DNA from: an uncultured bacterium
GTDB taxonomy: Bacteria; Caldisericota; Caldisericia; JAAYUI01
Reading direction: 5' to 3'
Length of the DNA stretch: 64,000 nucleotides
NCBI GenBank assembly: GCA_965370295.1
Contig: CBDUSO010000005.1
Span: 7,580 to 71,579 of the forward strand
Positions 11,266 to 25,110 of the stretch are shown piece after piece. Made by a program: the position numbers and the translations under genes. Under the pieces are notes generated by a model. The model had not been told where the DNA came from. It did not search any database and saw only the letters and a list, made by a program, of their open reading frames with translations. How positions within the stretch are numbered: the stretch's first letter is position 1; the number at the start of each line of letters is the position of its first letter.

Positions 11266-11378
11266 ATAATACTGGGGTAGGTTTGAAATCTGTCCTGATT
11301 GTAGTTTTTTCTGGAAAAAGAAAATAGCGAAATTCCAAATTTATAGTAAGGGTTGATACTTACAGGATCATAGTAATT

Positions 11379-11406
11379 GTAGGGAACGCAGATCTGCGTT
11401 CCCTAC
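11379..11406. terminator. Perfect 12-bp palindrome (GTAGGGAACGCA GATC TGCGTTCCCTAC) between convergent genes; bidirectional terminator or operator
   Basis: Perfect inverted repeat in the intergenic region between convergent genes; no strong U-tract. Confidence 0.4.
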
Positions 11407-11446
11407 GGAGATAGGATGATCCATGTCTTTCTCACGAAAGTGGGGG

Positions 11447-16938: not shown

Positions 16939-17892
16939 TTACCTTATCACAAATACGTAGAGTGCAAGTGCCGAAAATATTGCAGTTATCGCGTAAAATA
17001 CAAGAACTACCCCTCGCACAGACCAACCTTTTTTTATCAACTGGTAGTGAAGATTATCCATATCTCCTTTGAACGGTGATTTCTTATTTTTTATTCGTCT
17101 GAGTGCTGAATAAAAAACATCAGCCATTGGGATGAACAAAGCCAGGAATGAAACACCAAGAACAACGGCTGTGGTTGCTTTTGCGGTTCCCCAGATTGCT
17201 GAAACTGCAATCAAGTATCCAATAAAATGGGAGCCGTTATCTCCAAGATAAATCTTTGCAGGTTCAAAATTAAAAGGGAGGAATCCAGCAGAAGCACCGG
17301 CAAGGCAGATGAGTAAAATGGCGGGAGCATACAACCCTACTGAAAGAGACACGATTGCACTTGTAATGCAGACAATCATGGTGATTCCGCTTGCCAGACC
17401 ATCAAGACCATCAATAAAATTGACAGCATTTACAACCAGAATAATCCAGAGATAGGTGAGTGGAATTGCCAACCAGCCGACAGAAAACCATCCAGAATTG
17501 ACAACATTTGTCAGGTATGCAATTCGATAACCTGCCAGGATTGGAGGGGTCGCGGCAAGAATTTGTCCGGCAAATTTTATCCATGGTGAGAGCTTGTATT
17601 TGTCATCGATGAGCATGAATACTGTGATGATGATGGCACCAGCAATGATACTCCACGATGAAAGATCAAACTTTGAAAATATCAGAAACGGGATGAATAC
17701 GGCAATAAATATACTCAAACCACCAGTTCTTGGAGTTATCTTCGAGGTTATCTTTGTCTGTCCGGATGGAGTTTTTTCACCTGACTTATCGGTTATTCCA
17801 AATCGTTTTCCAAACCAGATTGCAACTGGAGTCAGTACTGCACTAAAGCCTGCAGACACAAGGAAAATGAGTGGGAGAAGCCAATAATTCAT
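16939..17892 (-). CDS. wecA: Undecaprenyl-phosphate GlcNAc-1-phosphate transferase (WecA/TagO family, glycosyltransferase family 4)
   Basis: NAVNFIDGLDGLASG motif, polytopic, 317 aa. Lacks the MraY-specific HHH tail. Confidence 0.75.
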   Translation of the reverse strand: MNYWLLPLIFLVSAGFSAVLTPVAIWFGKRFGITDKSGEKTPSGQTKITSKITPRTGGLSIFIAVFIPFLIFSKFDLSSWSIIAGAIIITVFMLIDDKYKLSPWIKFAGQILAATPPILAGYRIAYLTNVVNSGWFSVGWLAIPLTYLWIILVVNAVNFIDGLDGLASGITMIVCITSAIVSLSVGLYAPAILLICLAGASAGFLPFNFEPAKIYLGDNGSHFIGYLIAVSAIWGTAKATTAVVLGVSFLALFIPMADVFYSALRRIKNKKSPFKGDMDNLHYQLIKKGWSVRGVVLVFYAITAIFSALALYVFVIR

Positions 17893-19142
17893 TACAGGTA
17901 GGAGACACCCTCGTAGAGTGGGAATTTATCTGTTAGGTTGGTGACTTCTTTTTTAAGAGTTGCCAGAACTTTTTCGTCATTCCTGTTTGCAACAGCTTTT
18001 GTTATGATGCCGGCAATCTGCTCCATGTCAGTTTCTTTCATTCCGCGGGTAGTGAGTGAGGGGGTGCCAAGTCTCATGCCAGATGGATTCATTGGAGGTG
18101 CAGGGTCAAATGGGATTGCATTTTTATTGATTGTGATTCCGATTGATTCACAGAGGTCTTCGGTCTCGCTTCCACCAATATCTTTTGGTCGAAGGTCAAC
18201 AAGCATGAGGTGGTTGTCTGTTCCACCAGAAACAATTCTGAAGCCGTTTGCAGCAAGTGAGTTTGCAAGTGCTGATGCATTCTTTACTGTCTGTTCCTGG
18301 TAAGCCTTAAAATCATTGTCCATTGCTTCTTTGAAGCATACTGCTTTGGCAGCGATAACGTGCATGAGAGGTCCACCCTGAATTCCAGGGAAAACTGCTT
18401 TTCTGACTTCTTTTCTCATGGCTTTTGTTGAGAGAATCATTCCGCCACGAGGTCCTCGGAGAGTTTTGTGGGTTGTTGTTGTAACGATGTCTGCATGAGG
18501 AATTGGTGATGGGTGAATTCCGACCGCAACCAACCCAGCAATGTGTGCCATGTCAACCATGAGATATGCACCGACACCCTTTGCGATTTTTGAGATTCGT
18601 TCAAAGTCAAAGAAACGAGGATAAGCAGAAGCTCCTGCCACGATGAGCTTTGGTTTGTGTTCGTTTGCGAGTCGTTCCATCTCGTCGTAATCAAGAATTT
18701 CAGTTTCTTTGTTTACGCCATATGGGACAACGTTGAACCATTTTCCAGACATTGTGATTGGGTGTCCGTGTGTGAGGTGTCCGCCGTGGTCGAGTTTCAT
18801 CCCCATGAATGTGTCACCGGGGCTGAGCGTGGCAAAGAATCCTGCCATGTTTGCCTGGGCTCCTGAGTGAGGTTGAACATTTGCATACTCTGCACCAAAG
18901 ATTTCTTTGGCACGTCTGATTGCGAGGCGTTCTGCAATGTCTAGGAATTCACATCCCCCGTAGTATCTTTTTCCGGGATAACCTTCGGCATACTTGTTTG
19001 TTGCCATTGAGCCAAGGGCTTCAAGAACTGCCTGGCTCACAAAGTTTTCAGATGCGATAAGCTCGATATTCCCTCGTTGACGACCCAATTCCAGCTCAAG
19101 AGAATCTGCAATCTCTGGATCAATTCTGTTTAATTCACTCAT
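17892..19142 (-). CDS. glyA: Serine hydroxymethyltransferase
   Basis: [13 protein letters not shown] and PLP-Lys region [11 protein letters not shown] conserved. 416 aa. Confidence 0.9.
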
Positions 19143-19591
19143 TCTTTTTCCTCCAGTTTTGTTATTTTGTCCACTCGTCTCTTATGACGACCACCTTCAA
19201 ATTCGGTTGAAATAAATTCTGAAACTATGTCTGTTGCAAGCACAGAACCGATTGTTCTTGCTCCCAGACAGAGAATGTTTGCGTTGTTGTGCTGGCGTGA
19301 AAGTCTTGCCATTGTTGTATTTGTGCAATTTGTTGCTCGAATATTTTTTATTTTATTTGCACTGATTGCCATTCCGATTCCAGTTCCACAGATAAGGATT
19401 CCAAAATCTGATTCATTTTTTGAAACATGACGTGCAACTTTTTCTGCAAAGTCTGGATAATCAACACTTTCATCGGAGTTTGTTCCAAAATCTGTAACTG
19501 AAAAATCTAAATCTTTCAGGAACTTGATAACTAAATCCTTGAGTTCAAATCCACCGTGGTCACTTGCAATTACAACAGATTTATTTTTCAT
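19139..19591 (-). CDS. rpiB: Ribose-5-phosphate isomerase B
   Basis: 150 aa. N-terminal [13 protein letters not shown] and [12 protein letters not shown] motifs. Confidence 0.85.
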
Positions 19592-19686
19592 CGAGTGTGA
19601 TATTAGTTTGAATACTACGAAATTTCAAGGTGAAAATTGATTTCTATTTGAGGGTGATTTTTTGGTTCTCATCTTTGTACCATCCT

Positions 19687-19836
19687 CGTCATTCCCGTGA
19701 AAACGGGAATCCAGGGTAGTAAAAAAGCGTGTGTGGAATTAAAAAAATCATAGTTCAACCTGAAACTTTCTCTGTCTTTTCAAAAATATTCACACGAATT
19801 CAAGAATCCTGGATTCCGCATCAAGTGCGGAATGAC
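19687..19836. repeat. Copy A of a ~140-150 bp hairpin-terminated repeat (MITE/REP-like) flanking the lipoprotein islet
   Basis: Shares 29/29 nt (CGTCATTCCCGTGAAAACGGGAATCCAGG) and a second block (CAAAAATATTCACACGAATT...CCTGGATTCC + hairpin) with a copy at 21893-22027. Middle segment divergent. Confidence 0.6.
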
Positions 19837-19853
19837 AAAAGGGGAGAAACGTC

Positions 19854-19985
19854 ATTCTGAACTTGATTCAGAATCTCCTTGTTCACACCCAAATCGAAAT
19901 AAATGAGATTCCGTGTTGTAGCACGGAATGATCCCTCTCTTTTTACCCCCCCCTTTTTTTTGAAGGGGGTAGGGGGGGTATGACG
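19854..19985. repeat. Additional ATTC-stem hairpins (19854-19874, 19908-19929) followed by C8/T8/G5/G7 homopolymer tracts
   Basis: attctgaa cttga ttcagaat and attccgtg ttgtag cacggaat perfect hairpins; then ccccccccttttttttgaagggggtagggggggt. Confidence 0.5.
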
Positions 19986-20223
19986 AGGGGAAAATCCAGA
20001 CATCACCATCATCCCTTTGCAATTAACATTAAATATGTATCAACAACTTGACGGGGGTGGGTAGCCTATTATAATTAATGATACCTTAACATAAGAAAAT
20101 TACCAAACTAGAAACTTTCTCAAGGTTAAGAGTAGTTAAGACCGGTGACAAAGGGGTGTCACCGATAGTGTGCTAAAATGGAGAGTGTCCATTGGACAAA
20201 ATTCTCAAAAGGAGAAAAAGGAA

Positions 20224-20778
20224 ATGAAAAGAATTGTAGCAATGATGCTGGTTGTGTTGATGGTTGGAACGATTGTGATTGGGTTGACGGGGTGTGGAAA
20301 TGATATCAAACTGGAAACATATAGTTGGAGATTTGAAGATGATGAGAATCTCGGTATTGATATCGGGATGCCCGAGGGTTTTTACTGTAGTCAATCACCA
20401 CCTTCTGACGTGGAACTTTATTGGGAGTTTGAAAATAAAAATGAATCCAATAAGCTCAAATTCTATTATTGGTTGAGTTTTGTGCCGGAATCTTCGATAT
20501 CAGATAAGATTGACAGTGCTTTATATGAATATGTGTGGGGGCTGGTGGGAGATTATTCTGATTCAAAAATCAAAGATAAAATAATTGAAGAAACAACAAT
20601 TAATGGATTACCTGTCCTGATTATTGACGAACCGGGAGCAGATTATGCTTGGTTTATACCCAGAGATGGTGCAGTTGTAAGTTGTTTTTTCGGCATAATG
20701 GAATTGGGTGTTGATTTTGATGATGAAGGGACTAGGGCGATAAAAGCAATAACAAAAAGCTTTAAAATCGTAAATTAG
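20224..20778 (+). CDS. Hypothetical acidic lipoprotein
   Basis: AAAGGAG RBS. MKRIVAMMLVVLMVGTIVIGLTGCGN signal with lipobox LTGC. No recognisable domain. Confidence 0.5.
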   Translation: MKRIVAMMLVVLMVGTIVIGLTGCGNDIKLETYSWRFEDDENLGIDIGMPEGFYCSQSPPSDVELYWEFENKNESNKLKFYYWLSFVPESSISDKIDSALYEYVWGLVGDYSDSKIKDKIIEETTINGLPVLIIDEPGADYAWFIPRDGAVVSCFFGIMELGVDFDDEGTRAIKAITKSFKIVN

Positions 20779-20840
20779 TATCACAAGTACCTAAACCAGA
20801 TAATTGCAATCGTCCCATTCAACTAATAGAAGGGAAAGAA

Positions 20841-21839
20841 ATGAAGGAAATCATGAAAAAATGGATAGTCTGTTCGGTCATTATTATATTATTGGCAGGT
20901 GTTTCAGGTTCGTTTGTTAGTTGTGGTGATGAAGAGTTTGCTACCCTCGTAAATACGGAAACAGAGACACAAGTTGTCGAAGAAACAGAGAAAGAAATCC
21001 CTGAAAAGCTAAAAGAAGTGATGAGTTTTTCAAATGACAATCAGGAGTATATGGGCGACGCATTATGGTGCAACCTTCCTGATGGTTGGAGTATTGATGA
21101 TAGTGAATTTATTGAGTTCGATATAATCTATATTGAAAAAGAAGATAGTGATAGTTGTTGGATAGATTATTGGAACTATATTGAATACAATGTGGATGAT
21201 TCATCTAAAGACAATCCAAGAATCTTGAGCTTCGATGAGGCTGTAGATGTTATGTATTCTGTGTTTATTGAATATAATATAGATGAAGGTAACTTTTCTT
21301 CGGCAGAGAGAATTTCGAATATTATTTTCAACGAACAAGAGTATGCACGATTTGTCATTTTGACCGATGGTCTTGAGTCTGTAGGTGTTTTACATATAAC
21401 CCAAGTTGAAGATGATATTGTCCAGTTCCTTACTTACTTTGAGCAAGATACTAACACAGAACCTATAGTGCAAGATTATTATACACAAGAGATTTTTGAA
21501 ATAATTACCTCAATAATACCAAATGATATGTATTGGGTCGCAGAAGATGCAGAAGAAATTGAAGAATCAACTGAGCAACCACCACTTGAAGAAATATCCA
21601 AACCTGAAACTACAACAACAACTTCTCAAGGCAACAAGGACTCCACCTTCGGCAGAGAAAATGTCGACAGCAACAGAAAAAATGAAAAACGGTATGTTGC
21701 GGGGAGCAACACGAACAAGTTCCACAACACAGATTGCCACCATGCAAAAAAGATTGAGCCTGGAACTGAGATTTACTTCTCGTCACGAGATGATGCAATT
21801 CGAAGGGGTTATGTTCCTTGCAAAGTTTGTGATCCATAG
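20841..21839 (+). CDS. Hypothetical acidic lipoprotein with C-terminal Ada-type zinc-binding-like motif
   Basis: Signal peptide plus lipobox (FVSCGD). C-terminus FHNTDCHHAKKIEPGTEIYFSSRDDAIRRGYVPCKVCDP is collinear with the Ada N-terminal metal-binding domain pattern (C-x3-C ... F/Y-F-s ... A...G-F/Y-x-P-C-K-x-C-x-P). Confidence 0.5.
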   Translation: MKEIMKKWIVCSVIIILLAGVSGSFVSCGDEEFATLVNTETETQVVEETEKEIPEKLKEVMSFSNDNQEYMGDALWCNLPDGWSIDDSEFIEFDIIYIEKEDSDSCWIDYWNYIEYNVDDSSKDNPRILSFDEAVDVMYSVFIEYNIDEGNFSSAERISNIIFNEQEYARFVILTDGLESVGVLHITQVEDDIVQFLTYFEQDTNTEPIVQDYYTQEIFEIITSIIPNDMYWVAEDAEEIEESTEQPPLEEISKPETTTTTSQGNKDSTFGRENVDSNRKNEKRYVAGSNTNKFHNTDCHHAKKIEPGTEIYFSSRDDAIRRGYVPCKVCDP

Positions 21840-21892
21840 ATTGTCATCAGGTAGTGTAGAGGTTGGTCGCGGCTGACCTCTACCTACGTCAT

Positions 21893-22027
21893 TCCCGTGA
21901 AAACGGGAATCCAGGGGATTATAAAATCGTATTCAAAACAAGAAAATAACAATTATCTAACCAGTCAAGATCATTGTTTCACAAAAATATTCACACGAAT
22001 TTCTAAAACCCTGGATTCCTGGTCAAG
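21893..22027. repeat. Copy B of the hairpin-terminated repeat
   Basis: See copy A. Terminal hairpins attcccgtgaaaacgggaat and ttcctgg tcaag ccaggaa. Confidence 0.6.
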
Positions 22028-22066
22028 CCAGGAACGACGGGGGTCTCATGGAATGATTGATGTTTG

Positions 22067-23473
22067 TTAAAGAGTAAAAACGGTCAGTTTTTCTTTGACA
22101 AGGTCTCTGATTGCCCAGGCTGGACCCTCTCTCCCAATTCCAGATTTTTTGATTCCACCATATGGCATCTGGTCTGTTCGGAAAATTGGGCTGTCACCAA
22201 TGATAACTCCAGCAACATCGAGGGCTTCAGATATTTTGATGGCTTTGGCAAAATCTTTCACCAGAACTCCAGCCTGAAGTCCGTACTCAGAATTATTTAC
22301 AAGAGAAACTGCCTCATCCAAGTTTTCAACTGGATTAATTGAGAGAACTGGGCCAAAAACTTCCTGACTGATAACTTTTGCAGATTCTGGAACATTTGCT
22401 AAAATTTGTGCTCCGAGTTTGACTCCACCTTCATCGGCACTGAACAACAAATTTGCACCAGAATCTGTTGCATCCTTCACCCATTCTCTGACTCGATTTG
22501 CTTCACTTAAGGAAACCATCGGGCCAATGGTTGTTTTTGGGTCGTGTGGATTTCCAATTATTAATTTTGAAGCGAGTTCAATAATTTGAGAGCAGACTTC
22601 ATCAAAAATATCTTTGGTTACATAAAGTCTTTGAAGTGAGATGCAAACTTGACCAGAATATGCCATGGATGCAGAAACTGCTTTCTTTGCAATCTCTGGA
22701 ATATCCCAACTAACATCAGCTATCATTGCAGAATTTGAACCGAGTTCGAGGGTTCTTCCGATTGATGGATTGAGTTTCACTAGATTCCAGCCAACTGCTG
22801 GACTTCCTGTGAAACTGATGTGTTTGCAATCTGGATGTGTGGCAATCGCCTCACCAATCTCTGAACCAGAGCCGATAAGGATTGCAAGTTGATCCTCTGG
22901 GAGTCCAGACTCAAATAAAATCTCAGCGAGCTTGAGAGCCACGAGCGGAGTTGTGCTGGCGGGTTTTGCGACAACTGGGCATCCCGCAGAAATTGCGGGA
23001 GCAATCTTGTGAGCAAGCAGGTTTAAAGGGAAGTTGAAAGGCGAGATTGCAGAAACCGTTCCGATGGGTTCATATGAGACAAATCCCCTTCGATTCACAC
23101 CCCATGGATGGGCGGGAAAGTTGATGGTTTTTCCTTCCATGGTTCGAGCGACTGATGCTGAGAATTTTAGAGTTTGGATGCATCTGTCCACTTCACCAAG
23201 TGCGAGTTTTATTGGTTTGCCAGCTTCAGAGCAGATTATATCTGTGAGCTCTTCTTTGTGTTCAGAAACTTTTATTGAGGCGGTATCAAGGATTTCAGCT
23301 CTTCTGTAAACGGGAAGAGTTTCTGATTTTTCAGCCAGCTCGAAAGCAGTTTCAACGTCATCTTGTCCTGAAATTGAAACACGGGCGATTATCTCGCCCG
23401 TGTATTTATCAGTTACTTCAAGAGTTTTGTCTCCATGCTTTCTCCCACCCACAAAAAATGGAAGTGTTTTCAT
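22067..23473 (-). CDS. NAD(P)-dependent aldehyde dehydrogenase family protein
   Basis: 468 aa. Catalytic Cys motif region (QVCISLQRLYV), Glu region (ELGSNSAMI) and GSxxxG nucleotide motif. Confidence 0.85.
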   Translation of the reverse strand: MKTLPFFVGGRKHGDKTLEVTDKYTGEIIARVSISGQDDVETAFELAEKSETLPVYRRAEILDTASIKVSEHKEELTDIICSEAGKPIKLALGEVDRCIQTLKFSASVARTMEGKTINFPAHPWGVNRRGFVSYEPIGTVSAISPFNFPLNLLAHKIAPAISAGCPVVAKPASTTPLVALKLAEILFESGLPEDQLAILIGSGSEIGEAIATHPDCKHISFTGSPAVGWNLVKLNPSIGRTLELGSNSAMIADVSWDIPEIAKKAVSASMAYSGQVCISLQRLYVTKDIFDEVCSQIIELASKLIIGNPHDPKTTIGPMVSLSEANRVREWVKDATDSGANLLFSADEGGVKLGAQILANVPESAKVISQEVFGPVLSINPVENLDEAVSLVNNSEYGLQAGVLVKDFAKAIKISEALDVAGVIIGDSPIFRTDQMPYGGIKKSGIGREGPAWAIRDLVKEKLTVFTL

Positions 23474-23488
23474 ACTATTTAGAAAATC

Positions 23489-24988
23489 CTATTCATCATC
23501 ACAGATACACTCTTCCTTACAGCAGAGTGAGTAGATGAGTCCGTAGTAATCATATTCTTTGGTCAACTTGGCTGGAAAGTCCTGGTTTTTGTGGACAAAA
23601 TAAAGTGTGTGTGTTCCTTTGGTAAGGAATATTGGGATTGTCATCAGCCTGCCACCCTGCATGTTTACGGCACTTCCAATGTGGTACGGGTTTGTTCCTG
23701 TTGCAGGAGAATTAATTAGTTGAGTTGAGTCAGTTGGTTTTATCAAATCGATGAATGGGTCAGCGTACACGTCTACGAGATCATTGGTATAAACAATAAG
23801 ATTTGCATTGCAATCTTTGTCAACTGAGAAAACCTGTCTATAGATATTTGTTTCCCATGCTCTGCAATGATTCCAGCCATTTGTTGGATCAGAAACTGTG
23901 TAAATCCAGTTTGCACATTTGTTGTAAAGTGTGTGCCATGGTGTTCCTCTGTAGTCTCTGCCCCATGCTTTTTTGTCTGCTTGATGATATGGAATAATGC
24001 TAACGGGTGCCCATTTTCCCAGAACATACTCAGTAGCACGATCAATTCCAACAGGTTCCCATGGAACTGTTGCACCTGAATTATCAATTATATTTACATC
24101 ATGCACAAGATATTCAGCAGAACTGTTGCTTGGAAGACAAGAGCAATCGCACTCATCAACTTCCCATCCACCTTCAGTTGTCTGACTGGCAAATGCTTTG
24201 ACAGAAAGAGTGTGCATCATACAGAATTGCTCAGCCTGGTTTGCAGCACGGTGGACAAAATAAAGACAATGGGTGCCACTGCTAATCTTGGGAATGCTGA
24301 TCGTAATTTTGGTGGGTTTGTTGTCATCGCCAACTCCACGACCGAGGTAGCAACGAGGTTTGTCACCCTGATTTGAGAGAAGGCGAGTTCCGTATGGTGG
24401 GTCCATATAAACATCTACATCGCCAACAATCCAGAGAGTGAGGGTACCAGTGGAGGCTTTTTTCAGTGTGAAGAACTGACGATAGATGCTGGGTAACCAG
24501 GATGAATCAATGATATTTTTGTTCACACCTTTTATGAGTGTTCGTTTATTTTCTGGAAATTCTAACTTGTTCCAACTGTAGGGTTTTTCAAGGTAATAAA
24601 TCCAGTCTGCCCCATAATTGTACATGTCTGCCCAATCATCCGAACCGATTTCTGATTCAACTTCATTCCTATCTGCAACCAGGATTTCATGCCAACCGCC
24701 CTGCATCCATTGTTCGGCATCCCAGGGTAAATCGTCGAGCTCCATGTTTAGATTGTTCCAGTCTGTCAGAGATGGATCAGGATTCTCCCAATCAAAACCT
24801 TCATCATAAAGAAACCATTTTTCAGGGTCTTGTTCAAGATATTCCATGGTGTTGTCAGATGTTAAAATCACAGTCTCACAAGAAATGAAATTATCTTTGG
24901 AAGTACCCTGTTCACCACTGTTTACAGAGCAACCAGTAATCAAAATCATTACAACAAGGGTAAGAGCCAGCAAACGTTTATATGACAT
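23489..24988 (-). CDS. Hypothetical secreted lipoprotein with internally duplicated ~130-aa domain and Cys-rich C-terminus
   Basis: MSYKRLLALTLVVMILITGCS lipoprotein signal. Two homologous segments (WIYYLEKP...GTHCLYFVH / WIYTVSDP...GTHTLYFVH). C-terminal CCKEECICDDE. Confidence 0.5.
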   Translation of the reverse strand: MSYKRLLALTLVVMILITGCSVNSGEQGTSKDNFISCETVILTSDNTMEYLEQDPEKWFLYDEGFDWENPDPSLTDWNNLNMELDDLPWDAEQWMQGGWHEILVADRNEVESEIGSDDWADMYNYGADWIYYLEKPYSWNKLEFPENKRTLIKGVNKNIIDSSWLPSIYRQFFTLKKASTGTLTLWIVGDVDVYMDPPYGTRLLSNQGDKPRCYLGRGVGDDNKPTKITISIPKISSGTHCLYFVHRAANQAEQFCMMHTLSVKAFASQTTEGGWEVDECDCSCLPSNSSAEYLVHDVNIIDNSGATVPWEPVGIDRATEYVLGKWAPVSIIPYHQADKKAWGRDYRGTPWHTLYNKCANWIYTVSDPTNGWNHCRAWETNIYRQVFSVDKDCNANLIVYTNDLVDVYADPFIDLIKPTDSTQLINSPATGTNPYHIGSAVNMQGGRLMTIPIFLTKGTHTLYFVHKNQDFPAKLTKEYDYYGLIYSLCCKEECICDDE

Positions 24989-25110
24989 GATACCCTCCTT
25001 TTTATGTTTTTTTATATGCATCTCTGATATATAAATAACCTATAAATCACTGTTCGTCAAGTGATTTCAGAATGAATACTGAATATGTCTATGTTTATAA
25101 AAAAATGAAA

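Follow-up and report, generated by a model that had tools for sequence, protein, structure and literature searches.

A repeat-flanked, strain-variable lipoprotein islet in an uncultured Caldisericota bacterium resembles the NTS and NIME arrangements of Neisseria

The name NIME stands for neisserial intergenic mosaic element and is said to go back to Parkhill in 2000. The units so called consist of dRS3 inverted repeats flanking RS elements of 50-150 bp; they form dynamic arrays by variable surface-protein genes, and such arrays were reported as not observed outside Neisseria (Bentley 2007, PMC1797815). We analyzed a 64,000-nt stretch of DNA from an uncultured Caldisericota bacterium of the lineage Caldisericia; JAAYUI01 (contig CBDUSO010000005.1 of assembly GCA_965370295.1, positions 7,580-71,579, plus strand; hereafter the window), in which two lipoprotein genes between rpiB and an aldehyde dehydrogenase (ALDH) gene are bracketed by NIME-like units with hairpin ends. 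This islet is a phylogenetically distant example of a known arrangement and not a new mobile element, and we consider it probable that it sits at a variable site like those of minimal mobile elements, with homologous recombination at repeats resembling NIMEs and the Neisseria Transformation Sequence (NTS) keeping the site dynamic.

The classical dRS3 repeat is ATTCCC-N8-GGGAAT (PMC11893778, PMC1797815), and the NTS is an extended dRS3 of 28 nt, CGTCATTCCCGCGMAVGCGGGAATCYRG (Chenal et al. 2025, PMC11893778). According to the same study, a small GIY-YIG nuclease, SsnA, binds the NTS and cuts it, in both cases only when the DNA is single-stranded, and it needs GTC 5′ of the palindrome for cleavage and C immediately 3′ of it for binding (PMC11893778). 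A degenerate Ssn-related motif (SRM), HGTCWYN(0-2)YYVSBRHN(0-5)WNVSBRGN(0-2)RNCYNB, occurs across phyla, and the ssn gene, which encodes a single-domain GIY-YIG protein (cd10448), is typically flanked by SRMs (PMC11893778). Membrane-protein genes are surrounded by NTS clusters, and SsnA lowers transformation by NTS-gene-NTS DNA (PMC11893778). Minimal mobile elements (MMEs) were likewise defined in Neisseria, together with their association with surface-protein genes (PMC1797815). Bertels and Rainey treated the Neisseria repeat ATTCCCGCGCAGGCGGGAATC as a REPIN, that is, a pair of inverted repetitive extragenic palindromic (REP) sequences, mobilised by a group 2 REP-associated tyrosine transposase (RAYT) (bioRxiv 10.1101/2021.07.10.451892).

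Judged by their sequence, the left hairpins of the two bracketing units, which we call A and C, are members of this described class, the Neisseria dRS3/NTS repeats and the pan-bacterial SRM. We classified them with the motif definitions of PMC11893778 and obtained the expected number of SRMs from first-order Markov simulations. Both left hairpins contain the strict dRS3 form, as ATTCCCGTGAAAACGGGAAT, and they are the only two SRM matches, on the plus strand, in the 64 kb (simulated mean 0.17, maximum 2). The NTS itself, with at most one mismatch allowed, is not matched, as the window hairpin CGTCATTCCCGTGAAAACGGGAATCCAG departs from it at two positions (C12T and G17A), which together make up one compensatory stem pair. 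The flanks critical for SsnA, GTC on the 5′ side and C on the 3′ side, are kept in five of the six hairpins of A, C and a third, shorter unit, B, whose right hairpin reads ATC.

Units A and C measure about 150 bp each and bracket both lipoprotein genes in direct orientation. The window contains exactly two copies of a 29-nt block, CGTCATTCCCGTGAAAACGGGAATCCAGG (at 19687 and 21887; no match in any of 100 shuffles), and exactly two of a 20-nt block, CAAAAATATTCACACGAATT (at 19781 and 21982; essentially never in shuffles), with a start-to-start spacing of 2200-2202 bp between the blocks of A and C. The original prediction, made on the same DNA, had described two direct ~140-bp copies with identical termini, ending at 22027. 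Two direct copies are indeed present and both blocks are exact, but the units are somewhat longer, the 20-nt block is internal, and the true right end is an inverted hairpin that is only ~74% alike between A and C; the end coordinate cut off this hairpin in C, and unit B was overlooked. Each unit starts with CGTC-ATTCC(stem-loop)GGAAT-CCAGG and ends with the inverted form, CCTGG-ATTCC(stem-loop)GGAAT-GAC. The end hairpins have the form GTCATTCC-loop-GGAATCC, and an inner stem, CCAGGG...CCCTGG, pairs the two unit ends; with the hairpins included, the imperfect terminal inverted repeats reach ~45 nt. The hairpins lie ~92-95 nt apart in A and C and are closer together in B, which is adjacent to A. 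The right hairpins (GCATCAAGTGC in A, TGGTCAAGCCA in C) differ by compensatory stem changes, indicating that structure and not sequence is conserved. The centres are AT-rich and differ between A and C, and the two units are thus not recent duplicates of each other. The hairpin motif, which is conserved across phyla, would be constrained while the RS-like centre would be free to vary, giving the same ends with A-type and C-type centres.

Folded as single-strand DNA and compared with shuffles, A reaches -22.3 kcal/mol (z -4.2), C -25.5 kcal/mol (z -5.5) and B a z of -3.7. No direct repeat links the two flanks of A (..catcct / aaaagg..), of C (..ctaccta / gggggt..) or of B, that is, there is no target-site duplication, and none was found around the islet as a whole. 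The NIME layout of dRS3-type inverted repeats around an RS, in clustered units, is found in A, B and C, with right hairpins that are dRS3-like and not strict dRS3.

Comparison of the rpiB-ALDH junction between relatives, which had been proposed with the original prediction, revealed that the islet is a real presence/absence polymorphism. In four distant genomes (L001-L005; ALDH 67-72% protein identity) the gap between ALDH and rpiB is 20-65 bp, without a unit or lipoprotein gene. Two close relatives, L126 and L127 (ALDH ~90% DNA identity), each have a single unit there. In L126 the junction is 267 bp and contains one C-type unit with a degraded left hairpin; in L127 it is 531 bp and contains one A-type unit, followed by ~280 bp with tandem half-hairpin repeats and poly-C. 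The window junction is 2475 bp, including the two genes. Both genes are therefore absent from the junction in all six relatives compared, and the cargo (~2.2 kb) is confined to the lineage of the window among the genomes seen, while a unit is carried at the site throughout the species cluster (window, L126 and L127). Unit A has an orthologous copy in L127 and a further copy on another contig, L252 (87-88% identical), and unit C has an orthologous single copy in L126. Conserved flanks with alternative or absent cargo at a syntenic site, which define an MME, are thus found at the rpiB-ALDH junction. The repeat is not restricted to this locus, a restriction that had been named as evidence against a mobile islet, as an A-type unit stands in the context of L252 and a decayed hairpin cluster at a second locus of L126.

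This second cluster (L126:19800-19920) lies in the spacer after the LMWPc gene and includes an intact GTCATTCCTGGCTTGACCAGGAATCCAGGG, and the orthologous window spacer (11266-11446) retains only '..AATGAC' remnants; gain or erosion of units also affects sites other than the rpiB-ALDH junction. In L127, the single unit is followed by a tandem array of about four copies of CCAGGAATGACAATATG.. (L127:9290-9410), each made of the 3′ half of the right hairpin plus flank, an array that implies slippage or recurrent repair locally at the hairpin. The L127 spacer also has a C9 tract of its own (L127:9150-9200).

Recombination at the site, also predicted originally, gains support from a sharp change in the relatedness of the two close relatives at the junction. 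L126 and L127 are 97.6-100% identical across ALDH and only ~94% identical on the rpiB/glyA side, where the window, L126 and L127 are roughly equidistant. From this shift, a recombination breakpoint can be mapped to the variable spacer or its immediate vicinity. Along 12 kb, the identity between L126 and L127 fluctuates between 89 and 100%, a mosaic typical of frequent homologous recombination in the species cluster. The class of the repeats, the synteny, the alleles of the site and the breakpoint are direct observations.

The cargo agrees with the earlier description of two lipoprotein genes between rpiB and ALDH, as Pfam identifies the flanking genes and both proteins have a signal peptide and a lipobox cysteine. 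They are also acidic, as described, with isoelectric points (pI) of 4.28 and 4.10 and D+E contents of 17% and 21%, and the claim that they hold no known domain apart from a C-terminal zinc motif can be kept: neither has a Pfam family above threshold, lipoprotein 1 has no Pfam or NCBIfam family, and the C-terminus of lipoprotein 2 gives a sub-threshold Ada_Zn_binding match (Pfam, E 0.003) and a weak 'sunset domain' match (NCBIfam). AlphaFold models from single sequences were poor, with predicted local distance difference test (pLDDT) values of 33 and 48 for lipoproteins 1 and 2; a PsbP/DcrB-like fold is a suspicion at most. No plasmid match was found for the islet DNA.

For lipoprotein 1, a convincing relationship is seen with one protein, P0134 (36% identity, E 8e-5), which is encoded in a family-level relative at another locus, between queH and rph (L253:6565-7158), in surroundings without hairpins. 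The promoter, leader hairpin and signal peptide of lipoprotein 1 are partly conserved at P0134. The signal peptide, MKRIVAMMLVVLMVGTIVIGLTGCG, is near-identical in lipoproteins with unrelated or distant mature parts (P0134, P0138), and the comparison suggests a lineage-specific family of variable lipoproteins with a conserved 5′ module. The GC content of the cargo is 37%, ~1.6 standard deviations below the mean of the open reading frames (ORFs) of the window and within their range of 33-48%. With a lipoprotein 1 family in a relative and a GC content that is only slightly low, the cargo genes look native to the lineage and not foreign, and the lipoprotein 1 family in particular is native to it. 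The horizontal acquisition that had been suggested is not supported, given this GC content and the homologue of lipoprotein 1, with promoter and leader, in the family-level relative.

For lipoprotein 2, none of 5.8 billion clusters contains a relative over the full length. The sole homologue, P0131, is 71% identical over the last 98 residues. Resemblance to phage proteins is limited to the C-terminal zinc-type domain, which is 35-40% identical to hypothetical proteins from Clostridia phages. P0131 is encoded on the 1,067-bp contig L252, with hairpin remnants (GGATGAC/ATTCC) upstream (L252:1-130) and, 3′ of the gene (L252:730-1000), a B-like remnant followed by a full A-type unit 87% identical to unit A. 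This gene may be an alternative cargo at the same site or part of a second array. The N-terminus of P0131 looks DUF1232-like when its sequence is read.

Hairpins of the same type occur far beyond Caldisericota. The degenerate pattern GTCATTCC-N9-13-GGAATCCAGG is present in at least 120 viral contigs (GC 0.42-0.70), and the exact 23-mer of the window hairpin in at least 120 GTDB genome stretches from dozens of phyla, a Neisseria genome included; among the GTDB matches listed for the 23-mer, none is from Caldisericota. At these loci the hairpins are mostly convergent doublets, 4-50 nt apart. Because the motif is constrained, with only ~3 stem pairs and the loop varying, exact matches across phyla are expected, and we do not read them as recent transfer. 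Clustering of the ORFs around 240 hairpin loci gave no recurrent transposase or other recurrent neighbour gene. An ORF of ~90-100 aa, all of one family, is present in six sampled hairpin loci, and the two of these ORFs that were scanned against Pfam are GIY-YIG proteins (PF01541); in five of the six loci the ORF lies 21-54 bp from the hairpin. At the locus of an Oculatellaceae metagenome-assembled genome (L241), the GIY-YIG ORF is flanked by four copies of the hairpin variant of the window, matched over the 24 nt compared.

Ssn-like GIY-YIG ORFs are found in four viral contigs, at 32-54 bp from a hairpin in L006, L087 and L123 and with the nearest hairpin 3.4 kb away in L039. The viral hairpins from IMG/VR (loci L006-L125, at least 120 stretches) often stand directly upstream of a ribosome-binding site and ATG. 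The inner motif ATTCACAnGAATT beside the right hairpin recurs in two unrelated metagenome contigs, L248 and L250 (GC ~0.52), which hints that the small ATTC..GAAT palindrome of the inner repeat is conserved beyond Caldisericia. The coordinates of all features of the locus are given in Table 1.

Table 1. Features of the rpiB-ALDH region, in window coordinates
Feature	Position	Strand	Description
glyA	17892-19142	-	Identified by Pfam
rpiB, left conserved flank	19139-19591	-	Pfam LacAB_rpiB, E 2.3e-60; syntenic in all relatives
Spacer between rpiB and unit A	19592-19686		95 bp
Promoter-like site of rpiB	19600-19628	-	TTGAAA-17-TAATAT, 9/12 matches; spacer conserved with L126 and L127
Unit A	19687-19836	+	NIME-like dRS3-RS-dRS3 unit: left SRM hairpin, inner stem, A-type centre, right inverted hairpin
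Left-end hairpin of A	19687-19714	+	SRM/NTS-type; exact dRS3 at 19691-19710
Right-end hairpin of A	19808-19836	-	CTTGA-loop type; minus strand GTCATTCC-GCACTTGATGC-GGAATCCAGG
Unit B	19850-19935	+	Shorter related unit: two inverted hairpins, ~30-nt spacer
C/T/G homopolymer tract	19946-19980		C8, T9, G5, G7; between unit B and the cargo promoter
Promoter of the lipoprotein operon	20048-20075	+	Sigma-70-like, TTGACG-16-TATAAT, 11/12 matches
5′ leader hairpin	20143-20164	+	CGGTGAC-N8-GTCACCG; partly conserved upstream of P0134
Lipoprotein 1	20224-20778	+	184 aa, pI 4.3, lipobox LTGC
Lipoprotein 2	20841-21839	+	332 aa, pI 4.1; acidic N-domain (novel), linker, C-terminal Cys/His 'sunset'/Ada-Zn-like domain
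GC-rich hairpin 3′ of lipoprotein 2	21851-21887	+	Terminator-like, without T tail; abuts unit C
Unit C	21887-22038	+	Second NIME-like unit: left hairpin as in A, C-type centre
Left-end hairpin of C	21887-21914	+	SRM/NTS-type; exact dRS3 at 21891-21910
Right-end hairpin of C	22009-22038	-	Minus strand GTCGTTCC-TGGCTTGACCA-GGAATCCAGGG; same hairpin in L127, L252 and the second L126 locus
Spacer between unit C and ALDH	22039-22066		28 bp
ALDH, right conserved flank	22067-23473	-	Pfam Aldedh, E 1.5e-128

The lipoprotein operon runs antisense between ALDH and rpiB. The ALDH protein, which marks the lineage as Caldisericia, is 100% identical to the database protein P0001. The GC-rich hairpin behind lipoprotein 2 folds at -9.7 kcal/mol (z -3.1), and no significant fold was found in the region of the homopolymer tract (19936-19995, z +0.19). 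This tract lies ~70 bp upstream of the lipoprotein promoter and could be prone to slippage; no function was detected for it. Rfam returned no relevant family at gathering or permissive thresholds. We rejected an identity of the units with integron attC sites, as the core sites R'' (RYYYAAC) and R' (GTTRRRY) are absent and the unit ends read CGTCATT... and ...AATGAC; no integrase was found among six ORFs scanned against Pfam. A CRISPR-like array was also rejected, the spacing being irregular. Adjoining ALDH, at 23489-25021 on the minus strand, is a gene for a predicted lipoprotein of 510 aa (lipobox ITGC) without a Pfam or NCBIfam family. A gene of similar size without a Pfam family is found at this position in all relatives, and the gene of the window contains the most divergent stretch of the flank (~82% identity at 23551-23841).

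We propose that the site is kept dynamic by homologous recombination; the route, and any involvement of an Ssn nuclease in the Caldisericia organism, are inferred. The operon is self-contained, with its own sigma-70-like promoter, leader hairpin, two lipoprotein genes and 3′ hairpin. If the direct units A and C crossed over with each other, the cargo would be lost and a single unit retained, and the crossover point would set whether the surviving centre is A-type or C-type; this would explain the C-type unit in L126 and the A-type unit in L127 at the same site. Allelic replacement via rpiB and ALDH after DNA uptake is equally possible and would fit the mosaic identity profile. The hairpins would probably serve, by analogy with Neisseria, as sites at which an Ssn-type GIY-YIG nuclease acts on single-strand DNA and/or as recombination substrates that modulate the exchange of surface genes, and transposition of the unit itself would not be required.

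Several results weigh against this proposal. Within the 64-kb window the units are found at this one place only, and their right-end hairpins (ATTCCG..., 21-22 nt) lie outside the strict dRS3 and SRM patterns. The breakpoint is placed by three sequences only. The ~280 bp of additional sequence in the L127 spacer are not explained by a simple deletion between A and C, and the L127 unit resembles the A-type copy in L252, which leaves the deletion scenario without a diagnostic chimeric junction. A search by tblastn with two hairpin-adjacent GIY-YIG ORFs found no Ssn gene in the window, L001-L005, L126 and L127; it covered ~160 kb of related Caldisericia loci, L253 and L254 left out, and less than 10% of a ~2.2-Mb genome. 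A scan for the right end of the unit gave only four matches, all unrelated, in a metagenome collection without the L126 and L127 samples. We also considered the L127 unit as a hybrid formed by deletion between A and C and rejected this identity, because at its right end the unit corresponds to the A-type copy of L252.

Among the other explanations is transposition, in keeping with the insertion mediated by a miniature inverted-repeat transposable element (MITE) or REP that was originally suggested. The ~150-bp units would then be non-autonomous elements, and either the pair would have mobilised both genes in the manner of a composite transposon or a MITE insertion would have created the site. 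The long imperfect terminal inverted repeats, the size below 300 bp and the presence of related units in at least two genomic contexts, varying between relatives, are all in line with a MITE. However, target-site duplications are missing at A, B, C and the whole islet, there is no transposase in the islet and none recurrent beside 120 hairpin-bearing genome loci, the centres of the flanking units differ, so that they are not copies of one element, and the metagenome collection has next to no occurrences of the right-end pattern. We therefore regard transposition as very unlikely, and of the earlier suggestion we retain the REP-like hairpin elements and drop the MITE, for which a matching autonomous element is missing as well. 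A related explanation, in which an Ssn nuclease, an IS110/Piv-type recombinase or a RAYT acts in trans on the hairpins and the SRM-genes-SRM segment is excised and inserted elsewhere as a site-specific cassette, draws on the boundaries of the islet, which are same-strand SRM hairpins with an identical 29-nt core, on the GTC and C positions kept in most hairpins, on the lipoprotein 2-related gene in L252, which has A/B-type units after it and hairpin remnants before it, and on the use of dRS3 as an integration target by phages (PMC11893778, PMC1797815), the Neisseria Nf phages having an IS110/Piv-type recombinase. It is nevertheless improbable in our judgement, as no recombinase or nuclease gene was found in or near the islet, and we saw neither excision nor empty-site junctions carrying a clean hybrid hairpin, the left hairpin in L126 being degraded and not recombined. 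Moreover, the only activities demonstrated so far for Ssn are cleavage of single-strand DNA and a reduction in transformation; mobilisation of DNA is not among them (PMC11893778).

The units could also be incidental to the islet, as ordinary REP-like intergenic structures (for instance mRNA-end stabilisers, or insulators where genes converge or diverge) that gather in long spacers, with gain and loss of the islet unrelated to them. The antisense operon makes a divergent junction (rpiB/lipoprotein 1) and a convergent one (lipoprotein 2/ALDH), and the hairpins stand exactly at these; decayed hairpins are present in other spacers of the relatives, and P0134 does without any. Yet the close relatives that lack the cargo keep a unit at the site, which means that the units did not arise as a by-product of the operon. 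In addition, a recombination breakpoint was mapped to this site, the lipoprotein 2-related gene in L252 shows the association again, and the arrangement parallels the NTS-gene-NTS pattern of Neisseria. We think an incidental association unlikely, if less so than the cassette, and continue to favour recombination at the repeats at an MME-type site.

As a long shot, to which we give very little weight, 'SRM unit - surface-protein genes - SRM unit' segments could be exchangeable cassettes across Bacteria, cut by Ssn as single-strand DNA and re-inserted at other arrays. The A/B units by P0131 in L252, the conserved 5′ module of lipoprotein 1 and the abundance of hairpins in phage contigs are compatible with this idea. 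If it were true, the cassettes would shuffle the variable lipoprotein genes of the lineage between arrays, and they would represent a new, nuclease-guided system of cassette mobility through single-strand DNA, going beyond recombination at repeats.

NIME arrays and repeat-flanked surface genes have long been treated as a speciality of Neisseria, and in 2025 the core of the hairpin was tied to a widespread family of single-strand DNA nucleases (PMC11893778). The full arrangement is now found in a deep-branching, uncultured, anaerobic Caldisericota organism, with variable-centre units, a strain-variable lipoprotein operon and a mapped recombination breakpoint. This supports the view that NTS/SRM repeats organise envelope-gene variation generally. 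With three alleles of one site, the rpiB-ALDH junction is a compact natural test case for the action of these repeats.

Of the mobile-element classes to which the units could be compared, MITEs share with them the small size, the lack of coding sequence and the terminal inverted repeats, but not the target-site duplications or the autonomous partner, and there is no evidence of many near-identical copies. Like REPINs, the units consist of two inverted REP-like hairpins less than 130 bp apart that form a larger hairpin. Unlike classical REPs, they lack the GTAG-type 5′ tetranucleotide, and the distribution of the hairpin across phyla differs from that of vertically inherited REPIN-RAYT pairs. 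No RAYT was detected either: a tblastn search of the window and of 254 loci around hairpins (2.26 Mb) with the single sequence of E. coli TnpA-REP (identical to PDB 4ER8) gave no match at E<=0.1.

The site agrees with MMEs in its housekeeping flanks, rpiB and ALDH, in the alternative content between relatives, in a cargo of no more than three genes and in an exchange that recombination in the flanks can explain; it differs in that one cargo type is seen at the site and natural transformation is not known for Caldisericia. With NIMEs the units share inverted hairpins of the 20-bp class around a variable centre and their side-by-side placement, A followed by B. As in Neisseria, the order is shuffled elsewhere (B' then A in L252), and the arrays are dynamic between relatives and lie beside variable surface-protein genes, although there are three units only, without long arrays, and their centres are AT-rich with an extra inner stem. 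Relative to the SRM/Ssn system, the right-end CTTGA-loop hairpins lie outside the published SRM, and no ssnA homologue was found in the sequence searched. The host is a member of Caldisericota and not of Pseudomonadati, and the local copy number is low, but the resemblance to the dRS3/NTS and SRM repeats is close: the left hairpins are exact dRS3 repeats, match the SRM and have oriented CGTC...C flanks, and here as in Neisseria the repeats are intergenic and enclose envelope- or surface-protein genes in an 'NTS-gene-NTS' order.

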